A stretch of DNA of 64,000 nt, from contig DAOUKM010000008.1 in assembly GCA_034421295.1 (NCBI GenBank), positions 23,092 through 87,091 on the forward strand, read 5' to 3'. The notes under the pieces were generated by a model. It was not told the origin of the DNA and made no database searches. It saw nothing but the letters and a program-made list of their open reading frames with translations. Below are positions 6,268 to 24,771 of the stretch, in pieces (within the stretch, counting starts at the first letter, position 1; each line of letters starts with the position of its first letter). Position numbers and translations under genes: made by a program. The stretch comes from Dehalococcoidia bacterium (GTDB lineage: Bacteria > Chloroflexota > Dehalococcoidia > Lucifugimonadales > UBA2962).

Positions 6268-9210
6268 ATGCCCACCAGGTCCTCCGAAGCGACCGAACTC
6301 CCGCGAGTGCAGCCCGGCCCCGACACCATCGACCTGGCCAGGGAGCTGGAGGGCGAGGTAGACGGCGAGGTCCGCTTCGATAAGGTCTCCCGCCTCCTTT
6401 ACAGCACCGACGCTTCCATCTACCAGATCCTGCCTCTGGGCGTAGTCCTTCCCCGCTCCGAGGAGGACGTCGTGGCCACCGTGGAGGTCGCCCGCCGCCG
6501 GGGAGTGCCGGTGTTGCCCAGAGGGGGAGGCACCAGTCTGGCCGGCCAGACCGTGGGACCCGCCGTCGTAATCGACTATTCCAAGTACATGAGGGCGCTG
6601 CTGGAGGTGGACACCGAGCGGATGTCCGCGCGAGTGCAGCCCGGCATCGTTCTAGACGAGCTCAACCGCAGGCTGGCCGTCCAGGGCCTGATGTTCGCGC
6701 CGGACCCGAGCACTTCCAACCGTGGCAACGTCGGCGGGGCGCTGGGCAACAACTCGTGCGGCGCCCACTCGATCGTGTGGGGAAAGACCTCGGAAAACGT
6801 CCTGGGGCTGCGCGCGGTCCTCTCGGACGGCACGACGGCCGATCTGGGCCGGCTCAAGGGGGGCGAGATCACCTCTATGGCCGGCCGCGACGGCCTGCTC
6901 GCATCGATCGTGCGGGAGCTGTCCGCCGTGGGGATCGAGTACCGGCGGGAGGTCGACGCCCGATACCCCAGGGTCTCGCGCCGCGTGTCAGGGTACAACC
7001 TGGACAGGCTGCCGGCGGCCGCCGGGGGCGAGCTCGACCTCGCCGAGTTCGTGGTCGGATCGGAAGGAACCCTGGTCAACGTCACCGAGGCGACGCTCAG
7101 GCTGGTCCCCGTGCCACGCAGAAGGGCCCTGGCAGCCCTGCACTTCTCCGACCTGATCGAGTCGATGGAGGCGACCGTCGCGGCGCTGGAGCTCGGGCCG
7201 GCGGCGATCGAGCACGTCGGGGCGATGATTCTGCGGCAGGCACGGGACAACCTCGAGTACTCACGCATGATGGACTGGGCGCAGGGAGAGCCGGAGGCCG
7301 TCCTCCTCGTCGAGTTCATGGGGGACTCGGAGGCCGAGCTCTGCGACAGGCTGAGCAGGCTCGAGAGCAGGATGAAAAGGGCCGGGCTCGGCTATGCGAC
7401 GACGCGCCTCATGGACGCCGCGGACCAGGCGAGGGTATGGGCGGTGCGCAGGGCTGGCCTCGGGCTGATGATGAACGCCCCGGGCGCCGAAAAGCCGCTG
7501 CCCTTCGTGGAGGACACCGCCGTCGACCCGGAGAGCCTGCCCGAATTCGTAAGGCGCTTTGACGAGATCGTCAGGGAGGCCGGCACCGAGGCCGGCTATT
7601 ACGGGCACGCGAGCGTCGGCTGCCTACACATCCGGCCACTGATCGACCTCAAGCGCCAAGCCGGCGTCGATCGCATGGTCGCGATCGCCGATGCGGTCAG
7701 CGACCTCGTATTGGAGTTCGGCGGCGCACTGAGCGGTGAGCACGGGGACGGCCTCGTGAGAAGCCCGTTCATCGAAAAGATGTTCGGCCCGTCGATCCTG
7801 GAGGCCTTCGGGCGCGTCAAGATGGCATTCGATCCGGATGGCATCATGAATCCGGGGAAGATCGTCGACCCGCCCGACTTCGTCGACAACCTGCGCATAG
7901 ACCCCGACTACCGGACCGTCGACATACAGACCGCCATCTCCTTCAGGGCGGAGGGAGGGCTGGCGGCGGCGATCGAGATGTGCAACGGGCAGGGGGCGTG
8001 CCGTAAGCCGGCGGGGGGGACGATGTGTCCCTCCTTCATGGCCACAAGGGACGAGGAGCACTCGACGCGCGGCAGGGCGAACGCGCTCAGGTCGGCGATA
8101 TCCGGTGCGATTCCCCTCGAGGCGATGACCGGAGAGAGAGTCGGCCAGGTAATGGACCTCTGCCTGGGATGCAAGGCCTGCAAGGCGGAGTGCCCATCGA
8201 ACGTTGACATGGCCAAGCTCAAGTATGAGGTGGCGGCGCGCTGCCGCGGTGAGCGCGGGCCGACCCTGAGGGAGCGCGCCTTCGGGAACATAGACCGCCT
8301 GGGGTCTCTGGGATCGCTGCTGGCGCCGGTATCGAACTGGGTGGTCGGCTCCGAGGCGATCGGGGAACTGCTGGAGAAGGTGGCTGGCATCGACCGCCGC
8401 CGCACGCTCCCTCCGTATGCGGGGCAGACCTTTCGCCAGTGGATGCGCGCGCGAGAACCCCGAGTGGATCGCTCCGCGCCGCTGGGCCGCGTCGTTCTGT
8501 TCGCCGACACCTTCACCAACTACCACCACCCGGAGATCGGCAGGGCCGCTGTCATGGTGCTCGAGGCGCTGGGATACCGGGTCGAGGTGCCCGCGTTCCG
8601 CTGCTGCGGCCGGCCCCAGCTGTCGGTGGGAGACGTCGAGCGTGCCAGGCGCAACGCGGCGGCCAACGTCGAGATGGCCTCGGCCGCCATGGCAGACGGT
8701 GCAAGACTTGTGGGCCTTGAGCCATCGTGCGTGCTCGCATTCGGGGACGAGTATCTCTACCTGCTGGAGGAAGACGAGACCGCGCGGCGCGTTGCCTCGG
8801 GCACCGTCCTGATCGACGAGCTGTTGAGCGAGGCCCTGGGCAGCCGGGAGATCGAGTTTGCGACCGGGCGATCGGCCCGCACGCTCTTTCACGGGCACTG
8901 CCAGCAGAGGGCGCTGGTGGGTACGGGCCACTCCCTTAAGGTCCTGGGCATGCTGCCCGGCGCCGCGCCGGCCGAGATCGCCTCGGGATGCTGCGGCATG
9001 GCGGGCTCCTTCGGCTTCGAGTCCGAGCACTACGACGTGTCGATGGCAATCGGCGAGCTATCGCTGTTCCCCGAGATCAGGGAGCAGACCGGGGAGTTCG
9101 AGGTGGTCAGCCTCGGGTTCTCATGCCGCCAGCAGATCGTGGACGGAACCGGAGCGAGGGCGAGGCACCTTGTCGAGGTGGTCGCCGAATCGCTGCCGTC
9201 AGAGGGGTGA
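6268..9210 (+). CDS. FAD-linked oxidase fused to Fe-S/CCG domains (GlcD-GlcF-like fusion, YdiJ-type 2-hydroxyacid dehydrogenase family)
   Basis: N-terminal FAD-binding region (PRGGGTSLAGQ), ferredoxin-type cluster (CLGCKACKAECPSN) and C-terminal Cys-rich CCG repeats (FRCCGRP, CCGMAGSFGFE). At 980 aa its architecture resembles E. coli YdiJ. Confidence 0.85.
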   Translation: MPTRSSEATELPRVQPGPDTIDLARELEGEVDGEVRFDKVSRLLYSTDASIYQILPLGVVLPRSEEDVVATVEVARRRGVPVLPRGGGTSLAGQTVGPAVVIDYSKYMRALLEVDTERMSARVQPGIVLDELNRRLAVQGLMFAPDPSTSNRGNVGGALGNNSCGAHSIVWGKTSENVLGLRAVLSDGTTADLGRLKGGEITSMAGRDGLLASIVRELSAVGIEYRREVDARYPRVSRRVSGYNLDRLPAAAGGELDLAEFVVGSEGTLVNVTEATLRLVPVPRRRALAALHFSDLIESMEATVAALELGPAAIEHVGAMILRQARDNLEYSRMMDWAQGEPEAVLLVEFMGDSEAELCDRLSRLESRMKRAGLGYATTRLMDAADQARVWAVRRAGLGLMMNAPGAEKPLPFVEDTAVDPESLPEFVRRFDEIVREAGTEAGYYGHASVGCLHIRPLIDLKRQAGVDRMVAIADAVSDLVLEFGGALSGEHGDGLVRSPFIEKMFGPSILEAFGRVKMAFDPDGIMNPGKIVDPPDFVDNLRIDPDYRTVDIQTAISFRAEGGLAAAIEMCNGQGACRKPAGGTMCPSFMATRDEEHSTRGRANALRSAISGAIPLEAMTGERVGQVMDLCLGCKACKAECPSNVDMAKLKYEVAARCRGERGPTLRERAFGNIDRLGSLGSLLAPVSNWVVGSEAIGELLEKVAGIDRRRTLPPYAGQTFRQWMRAREPRVDRSAPLGRVVLFADTFTNYHHPEIGRAAVMVLEALGYRVEVPAFRCCGRPQLSVGDVERARRNAAANVEMASAAMADGARLVGLEPSCVLAFGDEYLYLLEEDETARRVASGTVLIDELLSEALGSREIEFATGRSARTLFHGHCQQRALVGTGHSLKVLGMLPGAAPAEIASGCCGMAGSFGFESEHYDVSMAIGELSLFPEIREQTGEFEVVSLGFSCRQQIVDGTGARARHLVEVVAESLPSEG

Positions 9211-9237: not shown

Positions 9238-10359
9238 ATGAAGATAGGGGTGCCGACAGAGACAAAGAGCGGGGAGCGCCGCGTTGCGCTGACCCCTGAC
9301 AAGGCCGACATCCTGGTGCGGGCCGGCCACGAGGTGGCCGTCCAGAGCGGCGCCGGTGCGAAGGCGTCGTGCCCGGACGAGGAGTATGTGGCGGCAGGCG
9401 CATCGATCGTCGCCACGGCGGACGAGCTCTGGGGGCGATCGGAGATGGTGGTCAAGGTCAAGGAACCCCAGCCCGAGGAGTTCGAGCGCTTTCGCGACGG
9501 GCTGATCGTGTTCACCTATCTGCACCTGGCCCCCGAGCCGGAGCTGACGAGGCGGCTGTGCACCTCGAAGGTCGCCGGCGTCGCCTATGAGACGGTGCAG
9601 GAACTCGACGGCTCGCTGCCGCTGCTGACGCCGATGAGCGAGATAGCGGGGCGACTCTCGCCGCAGATTGCGGCCAGGCTGCTGCAGACCGACTTCGACG
9701 GTCCCGGTCGGCTGATGGGCGGAGTGCCCGGCGCCGAGTCCTGCAGGATGGTGGTCGTCGGGGGCGGAAACGTCGGCATGGCCGCCGCGCTGATCGGCAC
9801 CGCGCTGGGAGCCCGCGTGGTGGTGTTCGATAACAACCTTGAGCGCCTCAGGTACATCGAGCACATCTCCCGCAGCACGGTCAAGACGATGATGTCCACA
9901 CCCCTCACGCTGGCCGAGTTCCTGGGCAGGGCGGACGTTGCGATCGGCGCGGTGCTGGTGCCCGGGGCGAGGTCCCCCAGGGTGATCACCAGGGACATGC
10001 TCGCCGGCATGAAGGACGGTTCCCTGGTCATGGACGTTGCGATAGACCAGGGAGGCTCAGTCGAGGGAATCCGGCCGACCACGCAGGCCGATCCCACCTA
10101 TATCGACCAGGGGGTGACGCATTTTGCGGTCACCAACATCCCCGGCATGGTCGCGACCACCGCGAGCGTGGCCCTGTCCAATGCAACCTGGCGGTACATT
10201 CTCAAGCTGGCCGATGACGGAATCGAAAAGACGGTGGCTGAGGCCGGCCCCCTGTCGCTGGGGATAAACACCCTCGGTGGACACGTGGTCCATCCGGCCG
10301 TCGCAGAGTCGCTGGACCTGGAGTACGTTCCGGTGGAAGAGGCGGTCAGGCTGGCGTAG
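9238..10359 (+). CDS. ald: alanine dehydrogenase
   Basis: MKIGVPTETKSGERRVALTP N-terminus, NAD fold VVVGGGNVGMAAA, length 373 aa, SD GGAGAAG upstream. Confidence 0.9.
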   Translation: MKIGVPTETKSGERRVALTPDKADILVRAGHEVAVQSGAGAKASCPDEEYVAAGASIVATADELWGRSEMVVKVKEPQPEEFERFRDGLIVFTYLHLAPEPELTRRLCTSKVAGVAYETVQELDGSLPLLTPMSEIAGRLSPQIAARLLQTDFDGPGRLMGGVPGAESCRMVVVGGGNVGMAAALIGTALGARVVVFDNNLERLRYIEHISRSTVKTMMSTPLTLAEFLGRADVAIGAVLVPGARSPRVITRDMLAGMKDGSLVMDVAIDQGGSVEGIRPTTQADPTYIDQGVTHFAVTNIPGMVATTASVALSNATWRYILKLADDGIEKTVAEAGPLSLGINTLGGHVVHPAVAESLDLEYVPVEEAVRLA

Positions 10360-10760: not shown

Positions 10761-11729
10761 TCAAAAGAGCCTGGTCAATTCACGTTCGATCTCCGAGAAG
10801 GTGGCGAAGGCCTCAAAGCGCGCCGACACCCTGCCCTCCCCATCTATCACGAACGTCCACTCGTTGCTCGGCAGGTTCCAGTCCCAGACCGCCTGGGAAA
10901 TCACCGCCTGATCAAGGTCGCCCTGAATCTCGTGGGGATTATCGTACAGGTCGACGTGAACGAAGTTGGCCCTTTCGCCGTACGTCTCCTGCAGTTCGCT
11001 GAGCACCTCGACCTGCGGACCGCAGACCGCATTTATACAGAAGGCCGGGCTCGCGAACACTACGACCACGGGCCGATCGTCGTCGATCGCATCGGCCAGC
11101 GAGACCCGGTAAAGGTCCGGGTTGTAAAGCGAGCCCGTGGTCAGCTCGGCCGGGCTTGCCACGTCCGCCGCGATCCTGGTCACACTCCGAACCGCCCTCT
11201 CACCCACCCCGGGCGCGGAGGTGTCCCCGGCCACATCGAAGGTAAGCTCGACGATCTCCACGCCTCCGTCCCCGGCGGGGGCCTCTATCGCCAGTCGATG
11301 GGTTCCCGACGCCTGAAACTCCACGAAGGTCGTATACAGGCCGCGAGACCCCACCGGCCAGGGCTGGTAGGCGGCGTCCAGGGGCCCGGCGACCTCCCGC
11401 TCTGCGCCGGGCCCGCCGGCATACAGCGTCACCCGCACGATGGGCTCACTGACAACCCCGCGCGGAGAGATCAGCACGAATCCCAGCCGATGGCGTCCGG
11501 GACTCAGATCGTCGGTGCCCAGTATGGCCTGAAATCCTCCCTCCGTCGTGGGGCCCTCGATCAGCTGGTGATCGTCGGGACGGGGACGGTCGGCGGCCGG
11601 CGAGCCGCCACCGCAGGAGACGACCAGGCCCACGGCGGCAGCGACGAGCAGCCCCGTTGCGACGGCACGGACCGAGGATATGGAGGTGCCGGCCCCGGAC
11701 CCGGGTGTTCTACAGGTTCTTGAAGACAC
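10761..11729 (-). CDS. thioredoxin-fold lipoprotein with an N-terminal beta-sandwich-like domain
   Basis: Signal peptide and lipobox-like LVVSCGGG. The C-terminal thioredoxin-like region has SPAFCINAVCGPQ. Start is uncertain: GTG at 11729 (20-nt overlap with the upstream gene) or GTG at 11792 (83-nt overlap). There is no ATG option. Confidence 0.75.
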   Translation of the reverse strand: MSSRTCRTPGSGAGTSISSVRAVATGLLVAAAVGLVVSCGGGSPAADRPRPDDHQLIEGPTTEGGFQAILGTDDLSPGRHRLGFVLISPRGVVSEPIVRVTLYAGGPGAEREVAGPLDAAYQPWPVGSRGLYTTFVEFQASGTHRLAIEAPAGDGGVEIVELTFDVAGDTSAPGVGERAVRSVTRIAADVASPAELTTGSLYNPDLYRVSLADAIDDDRPVVVVFASPAFCINAVCGPQVEVLSELQETYGERANFVHVDLYDNPHEIQGDLDQAVISQAVWDWNLPSNEWTFVIDGEGRVSARFEAFATFSEIERELTRLF

Positions 11730-13116
11730 CGAATGTGAACGCGAAGAACTCGAAGTGGTCCGAGTTTGACGCCAGCTTGAGTTCGTATCCACCGTACTCA
11801 GGGGTCCTGGCGACGCGGTACATCCGGTCCTCGTTCACGAGCAGGTAGCTGTTGCCCTCATCGTCCCACATCACGTCCTCGCCGGCGTGGTCTGCGGGTA
11901 TGGGGCCACCATCGATCGTAACGCGTACCTCGTAGAAATCCCCGGACTCCGGCAGGCCCAGGACTATGTTGGCGCTGGTTCCATAGAACTTGATGGCCAC
12001 ATAGTCCTCGTAGGCCTCGGTCGTTCTGGCGTGCCTGAGGCTCTCGGGTCCGTTGAGCCACAGGCCGTTCAGATAGATGAAGTGGTTCTCGTGCACCCCG
12101 GGGTCCGCGTACTCGAGCGCCATATCCTGCCTAGCGTAGTACTGCTCGTGACGCACGTAGGGGGGTTGGCCGCCGAAGCGCAGGGCGCTGTAGTTGCGCT
12201 CGGTGCCGGCGTAAAGCTCCCTTGTGACCGACATCTGGGGATCATCTATGCGAAGCGCCGCCTCCTCGTAGTCCCTGGTCGGCAGGATCTCAGAGTCGTC
12301 CATGCTGACCTGCCCGCCGTTCTCGGCGAGAAGTTCCCTGATCTTCAGCTCCGTCTCCTCGTAGGCCCCCTCCCCGAAGTGCGCGTATCGAATGTAGCCG
12401 TCACGATCGATCAGGTACTTCGCAGGCCAGTAGCGGTTGTTGTAGTTGCGCCATGTCCCGAAGTCGTTGTCCTGGACGATGCGGTACTCAAGGCCGAACT
12501 CTGCGGCCGCCTGCTCGACATTGGCCCGCTCCTTCTCAAAGGCGAACTCGGGCGAGTGCACACCGACTATCGCAAGGCCGTCGGCGGCGTACTTTGCGTG
12601 CCAGTCCTTCAGGTAAGGAAGGGTGCGAATGCAGTTGATGCAGGTGTAGGTCCAAAAGTCGATCAGAATCACCTGGCCGTCCAGGTCTTCCAGCGTGAAC
12701 GGCTCGGCGTTGATGAAGCCGGAAGGATTCTTGATGTCGGGCCGGAACAGCTCGTTCCCCAGCCTGTTGAGGGCTGCCAGATTGTCCGGGTTGGCATCCG
12801 CCGGGGCCAGGGTGTCCTCTGCGGCCTGGTCGTCGCCATCGGCCACCTCGCCCGATCCCGTGGTCCCGTCCCCCAGGGCCTCGTCGATGAATCCCTCCAG
12901 CGTGTTAGTTGCAGTCCTGTCGGCGGGCGGTGATTCGTCTCCGCCGCAGGAGGCCGCCCCCGCGAGCAGGAGGGCCGCCAGCACGGTGACAACGGCCGCA
13001 AGAATCCCGCCTGGCAGGTGCGACCCGCCCAGGCCCTCAGCGCGAACGATCCCCCGAACGATCCTAGGTGACGATTGGTGTGTCCTCACGGTTCCCCCAC
13101 TCTCGGAATGAGCCAT
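11710..13116 (-). CDS. DipZ C-terminal-like thiol:disulfide oxidoreductase (TlpA/ResA-type thioredoxin domain plus C-terminal beta-sandwich), probable lipoprotein
   Basis: [16 protein letters not shown] CxxC motif, AhpC/TSA-like fold ([24 protein letters not shown]), and a C-terminal ...FEFFAFTFG tail typical of DipZ-like proteins. Signal [14 protein letters not shown] at 13116 with AGGA 6 nt upstream; GTG at 13089 is an alternative. Confidence 0.85.
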
Positions 13117-13924
13117 CGTAGTTCCTGACCTTGTCGTAGCCCAGAAGGGTAAGGGTGAACATGCCGTGCGCCGCACGGATGCCGCCCTGTCAGTACGTTG
13201 TGATCCTCTTGTCCGGGGCGGCTCCCACAGCCTCGAGCTTGCTGCGAAGCTCGGAGGCATGCCTGAACTCCTTGACATCGTCGTCGGTAACGAACTCCAG
13301 CCATTCCAGGTGCTTGGCTCCCGGCATGCGGCCGGCGCGGGCGTTGCCTCTGTCGTTCTCCCCGGTGTACTCCCCTACTGACCTTACGTCCAGCAGGACT
13401 TCGCCGGATTCGCCGCCGGCACCCGTGCCCTCCCCTATGCACTCGCGCATGATCTGATCGGCGGTGGCTATGAGTGATGGATTCGGATCAGGGCTGAACT
13501 CTGCGGGCGTGATCTCGGGCCTGGCGTCGGCGATCGGCCGCCTCTCTCGCAGCCACTTGCGCCAGCCGCCGTCCAGCACCTTCACCCGATCATGGCCGTA
13601 GTAGGTCAGCGCCCACCAGAGCCTGGTCGCCCACAGGCTTCCGAAGTCGTCGTAGGCCACGACAAGCGTGTCATTGCCGATCCCCAGCTCGCTCATCTCC
13701 TTAGCGAACTGCTCGGGCGTATCGATGAAGGTACGGTCGCTCGTCGGGTCCTTGAAGTAGTGGTCGCGCCGGACGCCGACGGCGCCCGGGATGTGTGCAC
13801 GCGTGTAAGACTCCCAGAACCCCGTGTCGACTATGCGTATGCCCGGCTCCAGCAGGTGGCGCTCGAGCCAGTCGGTGTCGGCCAACAGCTCGGGCCTGGA
13901 GTATCCCTTTTCTGTGACGCCCAT
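13064..13924 (-). CDS. two-domain rhodanese (thiosulfate/3-mercaptopyruvate sulfurtransferase family) with in-frame TGA at the catalytic Cys position; candidate selenoprotein
   Basis: ORF 13190..13948 ends ...DKRITTY-TGA. The same frame continues [41 protein letters not shown] to TAG at 13066-13064. That completes the C-x-x-G-x-R active-site loop and the conserved NYDGSxxEWG end. ATG at 13924 has GGGGGG 8 nt upstream. A hairpin follows the TGA (next feature). Confidence 0.75.
13158..13183 (-). promoter_or_regulatory. SECIS-like stem-loop downstream of the in-frame UGA
   Basis: mRNA sense: UGA CAGGGCG-GCAU-CCGUGC-GGC-GCACGG-C-AUGU. The upper stem is 6 perfect bp (13178-13173 with 13169-13164) and the loop is G-rich. 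The lower stem is 4-5 bp with one bulged C. The upper stem starts 11 nt after UGA and the loop about 17 nt after it. Confidence 0.55.
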
Positions 13925-14016
13925 GTTTGCATCCCCCCGTGCCGTCATTTTCTGCTAACGGGCGCTCTGCGCCAGCTCTGAGCGACGGCCCTACAGTGGA
14001 TGTTAGCACCGGTATA

Positions 14017-23733: not shown

Positions 23734-24771
23734 TCAGGGGACCTGCGCCAGGTTCTCGACCGAGGGCGTCAGCTCTCCTGACTCGACTCGATTTGCGAGA
23801 GACCGGATGGCATCGTTAACGGGAGTGGCGATGCCGACCTCGGCGCCCATGCGGGACACGTATCCGTTGAGGTGGTCGACCTCGATGCGGCGGCCCTTCA
23901 TCAGATCCTGCGCCAGTGAGGGGCGACCGACGCCCACCTCGCGGGCACCGGAAACCAGGACCCCCTCAATCTCCTCCATGACCGCCCCGTCGACAAGGGC
24001 GCGCGGGTAGAGTTCCGCCCTGACGCCGGTGATCGGCTCAATCGACACCCCGTGAGCCGTGCCGACGGTAACCACCTCGGCCGCTATGCGGATCGAGACA
24101 CGGCGGCTCGCCTCGACCTCCCGCAGCTCCGCAGACTTCAGCCCCGTGGCCCCGGCCACCGCATTGGCCATGGAGTTGACGCACAGCTTCGACCAGCGCT
24201 CGCCCCACAGGTTGGTCGTGGTTGAAACGTTCCCTCCGGAAACACTGTCCAGTATGTCCACCACCTCGCGCACCCGCGGCGTCACAAGGCCGCTGGGCTC
24301 ACCGACCGTAAAGGGCTTGCGCTCGGCGGGGCTGGTGTAGGTTATGTGGCCGGGGTCGTACATGCCGGCCCCGAAGGTGACCACCGCGCCGACCACCCGG
24401 GTCCAACCGACGACCGAAGCGATGGTCCCGTCGTTGATCGAGTTCTGCGCCGAGACGATGTAGCCGCCGGGCGCAAGGTGCGGCCTGATGAAATGGCACG
24501 CCCACTCGGTGTCGTAGGACTTGAGCGCGAGGAAGACGACGTCGAACAGTCCGCCCGAGATCGACACGTCAGCCAGGTGCAGCGCGGCCGCCGGGCGTGC
24601 GACAAACTCATCCTCCAGGGTCGTGACCCTGATCCCATCGGCCCGGATCGCCTCGACGTTGTCGGGCCAGATGTCGATCACCGTAACCTCCACCCCGGCC
24701 CTGGCCAGGAAGGCGGCAATGCTCCCGCCGATCGCTCCCGCCCCCAATACGGCGATTCGCTTTTCCGTCAT
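23734..24771 (-). CDS. 2-dehydropantoate 2-reductase family protein (PanE/ApbA-like)
   Basis: IAVLGAGAIGGSIAAFLARAG Rossmann start, 345 aa. Its ATG (24771-24769) overlaps the upstream stop in an ATGA arrangement. Confidence 0.8.
   Translation of the reverse strand: MTEKRIAVLGAGAIGGSIAAFLARAGVEVTVIDIWPDNVEAIRADGIRVTTLEDEFVARPAAALHLADVSISGGLFDVVFLALKSYDTEWACHFIRPHLAPGGYIVSAQNSINDGTIASVVGWTRVVGAVVTFGAGMYDPGHITYTSPAERKPFTVGEPSGLVTPRVREVVDILDSVSGGNVSTTTNLWGERWSKLCVNSMANAVAGATGLKSAELREVEASRRVSIRIAAEVVTVGTAHGVSIEPITGVRAELYPRALVDGAVMEEIEGVLVSGAREVGVGRPSLAQDLMKGRRIEVDHLNGYVSRMGAEVGIATPVNDAIRSLANRVESGELTPSVENLAQVP

Follow-up and report, generated by a model that had tools for sequence, protein, structure and literature searches.

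The question raised by this locus is whether a TGA that interrupts a sulfurtransferase gene of a Dehalococcoidia bacterium is read as selenocysteine (Sec), and whether the short hairpin just 3' of it is a bacterial SECIS element. The window, meaning the whole 64,000-nt stretch of contig DAOUKM010000008.1 that was analysed, contains one such gene. Comparison with related sequences indicates that the hairpin is very probably a bacterial SECIS and that the UGA is probably read as Sec in a two-domain rhodanese sulfurtransferase, with a probability of roughly 0.93.

The predicted selenoprotein gene, a tandem-rhodanese sulfurtransferase, lies on the minus strand at 13064..13924, as delimited by translation, Pfam matches and the extent of homology. 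With the Sec codon counted, it has 286 codons, and it terminates with TAG at 13066-13064. The start was placed by homology extent at the ATG at 13924, with orthologues aligning from MGVTEKG; an in-frame upstream ATG at 13948 is possible too. Between ATG and TAG the open reading frame is broken solely by the TGA at 13192-13190. Pfam PF00581 (Rhodanese) matches two stretches of the protein (E 6.8e-33), indicating tandem domains, and the nearest NCBIfam model is 3-mercaptopyruvate sulfurtransferase, which aligns with residues 16-285 at a score under the model's cut-off. The predicted Sec is residue 245, at the position of the catalytic Cys of the C-terminal rhodanese domain, where it forms the motif U-Q-G-G (UxxG). 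Residues encoded 3' of the TGA are conserved, with G+17, D+25 and S+27 each present in 125/125 sequences among the matches listed. Their codons, in contrast, vary, so this part of the reading frame appears to be translated.

Other TGA codons in the window were also considered. TGA as a sense codon under an alternative genetic code was rejected, as TGA ends neighbouring genes and a single convincing in-frame TGA occurs in the 64 kb. Four further pairs of open reading frames joined by a TGA were assessed as selenoprotein candidates and rejected, since they look like adjacent genes. Two of the four are clearly separate, their downstream members beginning with the N-termini of an alanine dehydrogenase/PNT protein and an aspartate-kinase-like protein. 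At 23736 (minus strand) and 58590 (plus strand), long coding-like open reading frames continue in frame over one TGA, with flanking residues that resemble gene ends or linkers, and these pairs look like adjacent genes as well.

In the minus-strand RNA the in-frame UGA (13190..13192), assigned to Sec from the translation and from its coincidence with the catalytic Cys of the second rhodanese domain, is preceded by UAC and followed, 5' to 3', by CAGGGCG, GCAU, CCGUGC, GGC, GCACGG, C, AUGU and UC. The preliminary description had drawn a hairpin here, and RNAfold returns the same structure at -12.9 kcal/mol (38 nt) and -23.4 kcal/mol (66 nt). Its coordinates on the minus strand were confirmed, the upper stem of 6 bp and the GGC loop match the sequence and the RNAfold output exactly, and the spacing holds, with the helix beginning 11 nt past the UGA and the loop 17 nt from it. 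The 11-nt spacer between UGA and helix, CAGGGCGGCAU (13179..13189, minus strand), varies at its wobble positions across the family, with CAG or CAA in the first codon and all four GGN codons in each of the next two. It is followed by a conserved SECIS core of 15 nt (13164..13178, minus strand), defined by RNAfold, RNAalifold and a codon entropy of ~0 at codons +4 to +8. The core consists of the 5' arm CCGUGC (13178-13173), the loop GGC (13172-13170) and the 3' arm GCACGG (13169-13164), and is encoded by the I-R-A-A-H-G codons that specify the active-site loop. Beneath it, the 3' side of a lower stem (13159..13163, minus strand) is made up of a bulged C at 13163 and AUGU at 13162-13159, which pairs with GCAU at 13182-13179.

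By itself the window sequence folds just modestly better than chance. Against dinucleotide shuffles the 38-nt element has a z-score of -0.65, with 50/200 shuffles equally good, and the 66-nt element has a z-score of -1.96, with 8/200 equally good. When synonymous codons were resampled according to the codon usage of the window, the 15-nt core reached -8.0 kcal/mol versus a mean of -1.97, a value attained by 1.1% of resamples, and the stretch of UGA plus 42 nt gave a z-score of -1.67. Under the same codon usage, the five synonymous choices made in the core have a joint probability of 0.004. The dinucleotide-shuffle test is uninformative in DNA of 65% GC, and the significance of the hairpin comes from comparison with orthologues and not from the energy of a single sequence.

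Orthologues were collected in three ways. A protein-guided scan of species-representative genomes listed 80 loci. Among these matches the ten nearest homologues (50-94% identity), which come from Dehalococcoidia, Binatia and some mislabelled metagenome-assembled genomes (MAGs), carry TGA in 10/10 cases. In the remaining seventy (≤43% identity) the codon is TGC or TGT, and the active-site loop differs, reading CNGGVAAT or CRIGERSSH. Orthologues of 90-92% identity sit on the complete MAG chromosomes OZ244723.1, OZ220697.1 and OZ242262.1. Genome contigs were then searched with a DNA pattern that fixed just the peptide [U/C]Q[G/A]GIRA[A/G]HG and left all synonymous positions free. This returned 119 TGA forms and 1 TGC form among the 120 matches listed, of which one TGA form (L151; related loci are numbered with an L) lies outside any rhodanese gene and is due to chance. 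The same pattern with codon +4 also freed and codon +9 dropped was applied in one metagenome scan, which yielded at least 111 distinct Sec-rhodanese fragments. The orthologue sets thus require a near-identical peptide, their members are phylogenetically related, and all counts from them apply among the matches listed.

Four of the TGA-bearing loci (L008, L010, L131, L158) are labelled as "uncultured Enterobacteriaceae" MAGs from binchicken co-assemblies and carry a Sec-rhodanese of Chloroflexota/Binatia type with ~50% identity to the window protein. Their taxonomic labels look wrong.

Synonymous positions within the core are frozen in the TGA forms. In 125 distinct Sec-type fragments among the matches listed, the I-R-A-A-H codons are ATC in 124/125, CGT in 124/125, GCG in 125/125, GCG in 122/122 and CAC in 125/125. 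In contrast, arginine elsewhere in the same genes is CGT in 3-14 of 52-109, and the invariant Gly+17 uses all four of its codons. Every frozen wobble base either pairs with a stem base that the protein sequence dictates or is itself the first G of the loop. This first loop base is unpaired and fourfold-degenerate, yet it is G in 125/125 and 111/111 sequences among the matches listed. An intact 6-bp stem is present in 123/125 TGA orthologues among the matches listed, and the RNAalifold consensus of the Sec-type sequences contains the 6-bp stem with its GGC loop and nothing else. In the metagenome fragments, which have flanks of 22-67% GC, the inner 13-mer CGUGC-GGC-GCACG is identical in 110/111 among the matches listed, the lone exception carrying a G-U wobble. 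In each pair the protein dictates one arm and the RNA the other, and this dual coding explains why the sequence of the element hardly varies.

Among the matches listed, the 6-bp stem is mismatched in just two Sec-type members of the genome set, L136 and L150. L136 has CGC in place of CGT, giving a C·A mismatch in mid-stem, and L150 has ATA together with GGA, giving an A·G outer pair. Errors in sequencing, gene decay or tolerance of the variants could each account for them.

The preliminary description had proposed that Cys-containing orthologues with an equally good hairpin would make the structure a by-product of the amino-acid sequence. A control scan for the same peptide with TGY in place of TGA returned eight loci, five of which are genuine rhodanese orthologues (L120, L201, L202, L204, L207). 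These share an identical decapeptide, and their R-A-A-H codons vary (CGG/CGT/CGC, GCC/GCA/GCT/GCG, GCT/GCC/GCG/GCA and CAT/CAC, respectively). The 15-mers of the Cys forms fold at 0 to -5.0 kcal/mol versus -8.0 kcal/mol for the Sec form. None of the five keeps the intact 6-bp stem, an outcome that favours the SECIS reading. The difference between 123/125 Sec forms, among the matches listed, and 0/5 Cys forms has a hypergeometric probability of ~7e-8 and ties the hairpin to the UGA, not to the peptide. One Cys form, L202, is 90% identical in protein sequence to the Sec form L169 over 62 compared residues, which identifies the Cys forms as close relatives of the Sec forms. The two groups together constitute a natural experiment on one peptide, with 125 Sec forms (among the matches listed) set against five Cys forms.

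Covariation, also raised earlier as a check on TGA-containing orthologues, is present at the outermost pair of the helix (C-G, G-C, A-U) and at a seventh pair beneath it. Pairs were counted in an alignment of 105 distinct 45-nt metagenome fragments with the window sequence. Among the matches listed, the outermost pair is C-G in 79, G-C in 12, A-U in 7, U-G in 2 and unpaired in 5; the seventh is U-A in 74, G-C in 5, U-G in 2 and unpaired in 24 (of 105). Overall 96.1% of cells are paired and 24 cells are changed on both sides, again among the matches listed. The observed percentage paired, number of double-change cells and covariation score were reached by 0/500 shuffles, and the pair-type counts were not exceeded. 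When the 3' partners were slid by 1-3 columns, 16-72% of cells could pair. The compensatory changes alter the protein in step, with the combinations Ile/Gly, Ile/Val, Val/Ala, Met/Ala and Gly/Ala.

The lower stem behaves differently from the upper one. The pairing of GCAU with AUGU around a bulged C, as originally drawn, is found in the window and its near relatives, but it is not conserved family-wide, as over half of the sequences cannot form two of the four pairs: pairs 12:33 and 14:31 are unpaired in 57 and 55 of 105, respectively, among the matches listed. The pairing tendency of the 3' flank is weak (mean z -0.62). The family more often uses GGA at codon +9, in 87/125 among the matches listed versus 15% GGA elsewhere, and this codon is what makes the seventh U-A pair possible. 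In the window, codon +9 is GGC and the bulged-C lower stem takes the place of that pair. The lower stem first described is therefore lineage-specific and lies outside the conserved element.

The Sec machinery was sought by tblastn with the SelA, SelB and SelD proteins of E. coli and by ARAGORN. No selA, selB, selD or tRNA-Sec was found in the 64-kb window, in which the tRNAs are tRNA-Asp and tRNA-Val only. The same three queries detected no sel genes in ~2.4 Mb of related loci. Apparent selB matches in two loci (L190, L285) were rejected, as their translations, read without a family search, are those of LepA-like and TypA/BipA-like GTPases. ARAGORN identified a tRNA-Sec in one related locus (L145, 2018-2113), ~5 kb from its Sec-rhodanese gene. 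A pattern built from this tRNA led to ten tRNA-Sec genes with a UCA anticodon (ARAGORN), in nine Chloroflexota assemblies and one Acidobacteriota assembly (L145; L210-L218). Sec-rhodanese and tRNA-Sec occur together in 4/10 of these assemblies (OY282371.1, JAPULR01, CBDCOF01 and JACQUK01). Within the 8-kb stretch around each of the ten tRNA-Sec genes, no selA, selB or selD was detected with the E. coli queries. Of the open reading frames beside the tRNA-Sec of L145, one is without a Pfam match and one is LutB-like.

Three alternatives to Sec insertion under a SECIS need to be weighed. It is very unlikely that the UGA is recoded with the help of the hairpin while the residue inserted is not Sec but Cys brought in by a tRNA that resembles tRNA-Sec, or a residue added by near-cognate read-through. 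In its favour, no sequence result points to the identity of the inserted residue, and neither the window nor the surroundings of the tRNA-Sec genes contained Sec-synthesis genes. Against this, a canonical tRNA-Sec (UCA) is present in ten assemblies, four of them with Sec-rhodanese, the hairpin fits the SelB-type bSECIS model, and the literature lists the family as a selenoprotein. The conserved hairpin might alternatively act at the RNA level independently of SelB, for example by stabilizing the mRNA or by pausing ribosomes while the active-site loop folds. Its extreme sequence invariance could hint at another sequence-specific partner; however, dual coding explains this invariance, and both the placement of the hairpin and the make-up of its loop agree with the SECIS model. 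The hairpin is also strictly tied to TGA and decays once the codon is TGC, which makes such a role highly improbable.

A hairpin that is merely a by-product of a GC-rich conserved peptide, with the TGA a true stop and the gene a pseudogene, misassembled or coding for a truncated protein, is barely credible. The weak dinucleotide-shuffle z-scores and the overlap with a highly conserved peptide would agree with it, but Cys forms with the same peptide lack the hairpin and the synonymous sites are frozen in TGA forms only. Furthermore, the same TGA recurs in >230 independent assemblies with the downstream frame conserved, and the GC-rich core is kept even where the flanks have just 22% GC. The preferred reading remains that of a SECIS acting on a Sec codon.

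Under the SECIS reading, the product would be a cytoplasmic two-domain rhodanese in which the catalytic Cys is replaced by Sec encoded at UGA 13192-13190. A ribosome nearing this UGA would have the CCGUGC/GCACGG helix with its GGC loop positioned 11 nt downstream. The hairpin would be bound by SelB, and after the presumed insertion of Sec translation would run on to the TAG at 13066-13064, a stretch counted as 33 codons, or as 41 from codon 245. The practical consequence is that gene callers will cut the gene at codon 245, so that the final 41 codons are lost along with the catalytic residue. The annotation should read selenoprotein, which would imply that the organism uses selenium. No new question about recoding is raised by the locus; it illustrates a bacterial SECIS that is frozen by its overlap with an active-site loop and released from this constraint once UGA becomes UGC.

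The core CGUGC-GGC-GCACG (13-15 nt) recurs letter for letter in >230 Sec-rhodanese genes with flanks of 22-67% GC, and the taxon labels of these genes include Chloroflexota, Binatia, Methylomirabilota, Entotheonella and other lineages. A speculative extension, which we consider rather unlikely, is that the core is a sequence-specific, portable mini-SECIS accepted by the SelB of many phyla. It would have spread horizontally and locked the RAAH residues by dual coding, so that the loop could evolve only via a switch from Sec to Cys. If true, it would represent a natural minimal SECIS with practical use for recombinant selenoproteins.

The genes around the Sec-rhodanese were also surveyed. Directly 3' of it, at 11710-13041 (minus strand), is a predicted lipoprotein gene with a lipobox and AhpC-TSA/Redoxin and Thioredoxin_10 domains. 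A second predicted lipoprotein gene at 10761-~11680 (minus strand) has the lipobox VVSCGGGS and a C-terminal FCINAVCG, and no Pfam match at 1e-5. In 21-23 related loci, among them the Cys-form locus L202, both genes likewise come after the rhodanese, at identities as low as 40-50%, which suggests that the rhodanese and the two lipoprotein genes form a conserved three-gene module. Further along, at 6268-9210 (plus strand), a gene encodes a 980-aa fusion of FAD_binding_4, FAD-oxidase_C, 4Fe-4S dicluster and CCG domains that is glycolate oxidase / D-lactate dehydrogenase-like. The next gene, at 9238-10359, belongs to the alanine dehydrogenase/PNT family.

Both the SECIS element and the enzyme family are already known, having been described in 2005. 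The Sargasso Sea study of that year presents the "rhodanese-related sulfurtransferase" (COG2897) as a new selenoprotein family, and the legend of its Fig. 3 refers to a predicted SECIS for AACY01016424. Its supplement gives three members with the motif TYuQ[G/A]G[I/V]RAAH and DNA that includes CGT GCG GCG CAC/T. The family is also part of the GOS analysis, and the table of a 2026 review places two UxxG rhodanese forms among selenoproteins. The window protein belongs to the COG2897/cd01449 UxxG rhodaneses by its tandem domains, its Sec at the C-terminal catalytic Cys and its homology to published members, with 41% identity to Sargasso AACY01110644 over 168 aa (E 7e-45). It shares with the Sargasso members, as given in that supplement, the Sec position, the motif TY-U-Q[G/A]G[I/V]RAAH, the core CGUGC-GGC-GCACG and the same distance from the UGA. 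At +9 the window gene encodes Gly, and its outer pair is C-G; that of the three Sargasso sequences is A-U in two and G-C in one. Unlike those members, the window gene comes from a high-GC Dehalococcoidia and has a lineage-specific lower stem. The present analysis adds the frozen synonymous sites, the covariation of the outer pair and the decay of the hairpin in Cys revertants, and corrects the lower stem.

The element also agrees with the general model of bacterial SECIS elements. Rfam at gathering thresholds reports two tRNAs in the window and no SECIS match. The bSECIS consensus (bSECISearch; PMC13188914) calls for a loop of 3-9 nt, an upper stem of 4-16 bp and a G among the first two nucleotides of the loop. 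The same source (PMC13188914) places the loop 16-37 nt from the UGA and sets an MFE of at most -7.5 kcal/mol. The window element has a loop of 3 nt (G-G-C), a stem of 6 bp, a distance of 17 nt and an MFE of -8.0 kcal/mol for the 15-nt core or -12.9 kcal/mol for 38 nt, so all numerical values fall within these ranges. As the model also expects, the in-frame UGA is followed by a continuing open reading frame and aligns with Cys, homologues of ≤43% identity having TGC or TGT, and the structure is kept in Sec orthologues and dispensable in Cys orthologues. Compared with the consensus, the element stands at the minimal end for loop size and spacing and is unusually invariant in primary sequence.

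Among the elements closest to it are those of E. coli fdhF and fdnG, which are SelB-dependent and consist of a 17-nt hairpin with a bulged U17 and a loop G23-U24, the minimal element being located 11 nt from the UGA. The window element has in common with them a site in the coding region just 3' of the UGA, the 11-nt spacing, a G in the apical loop and a lower stem that is dispensable or variable. In contrast to fdhF, its stem is a perfect 6 bp without the bulged U17, its GGC triloop is without the G23-U24, and it measures 15 rather than 17 nt. The fdhF-like spacing and G-containing loop originally claimed for the hairpin are borne out. By analogy, the window element would work like the fdhF element while belonging to a different sequence class.
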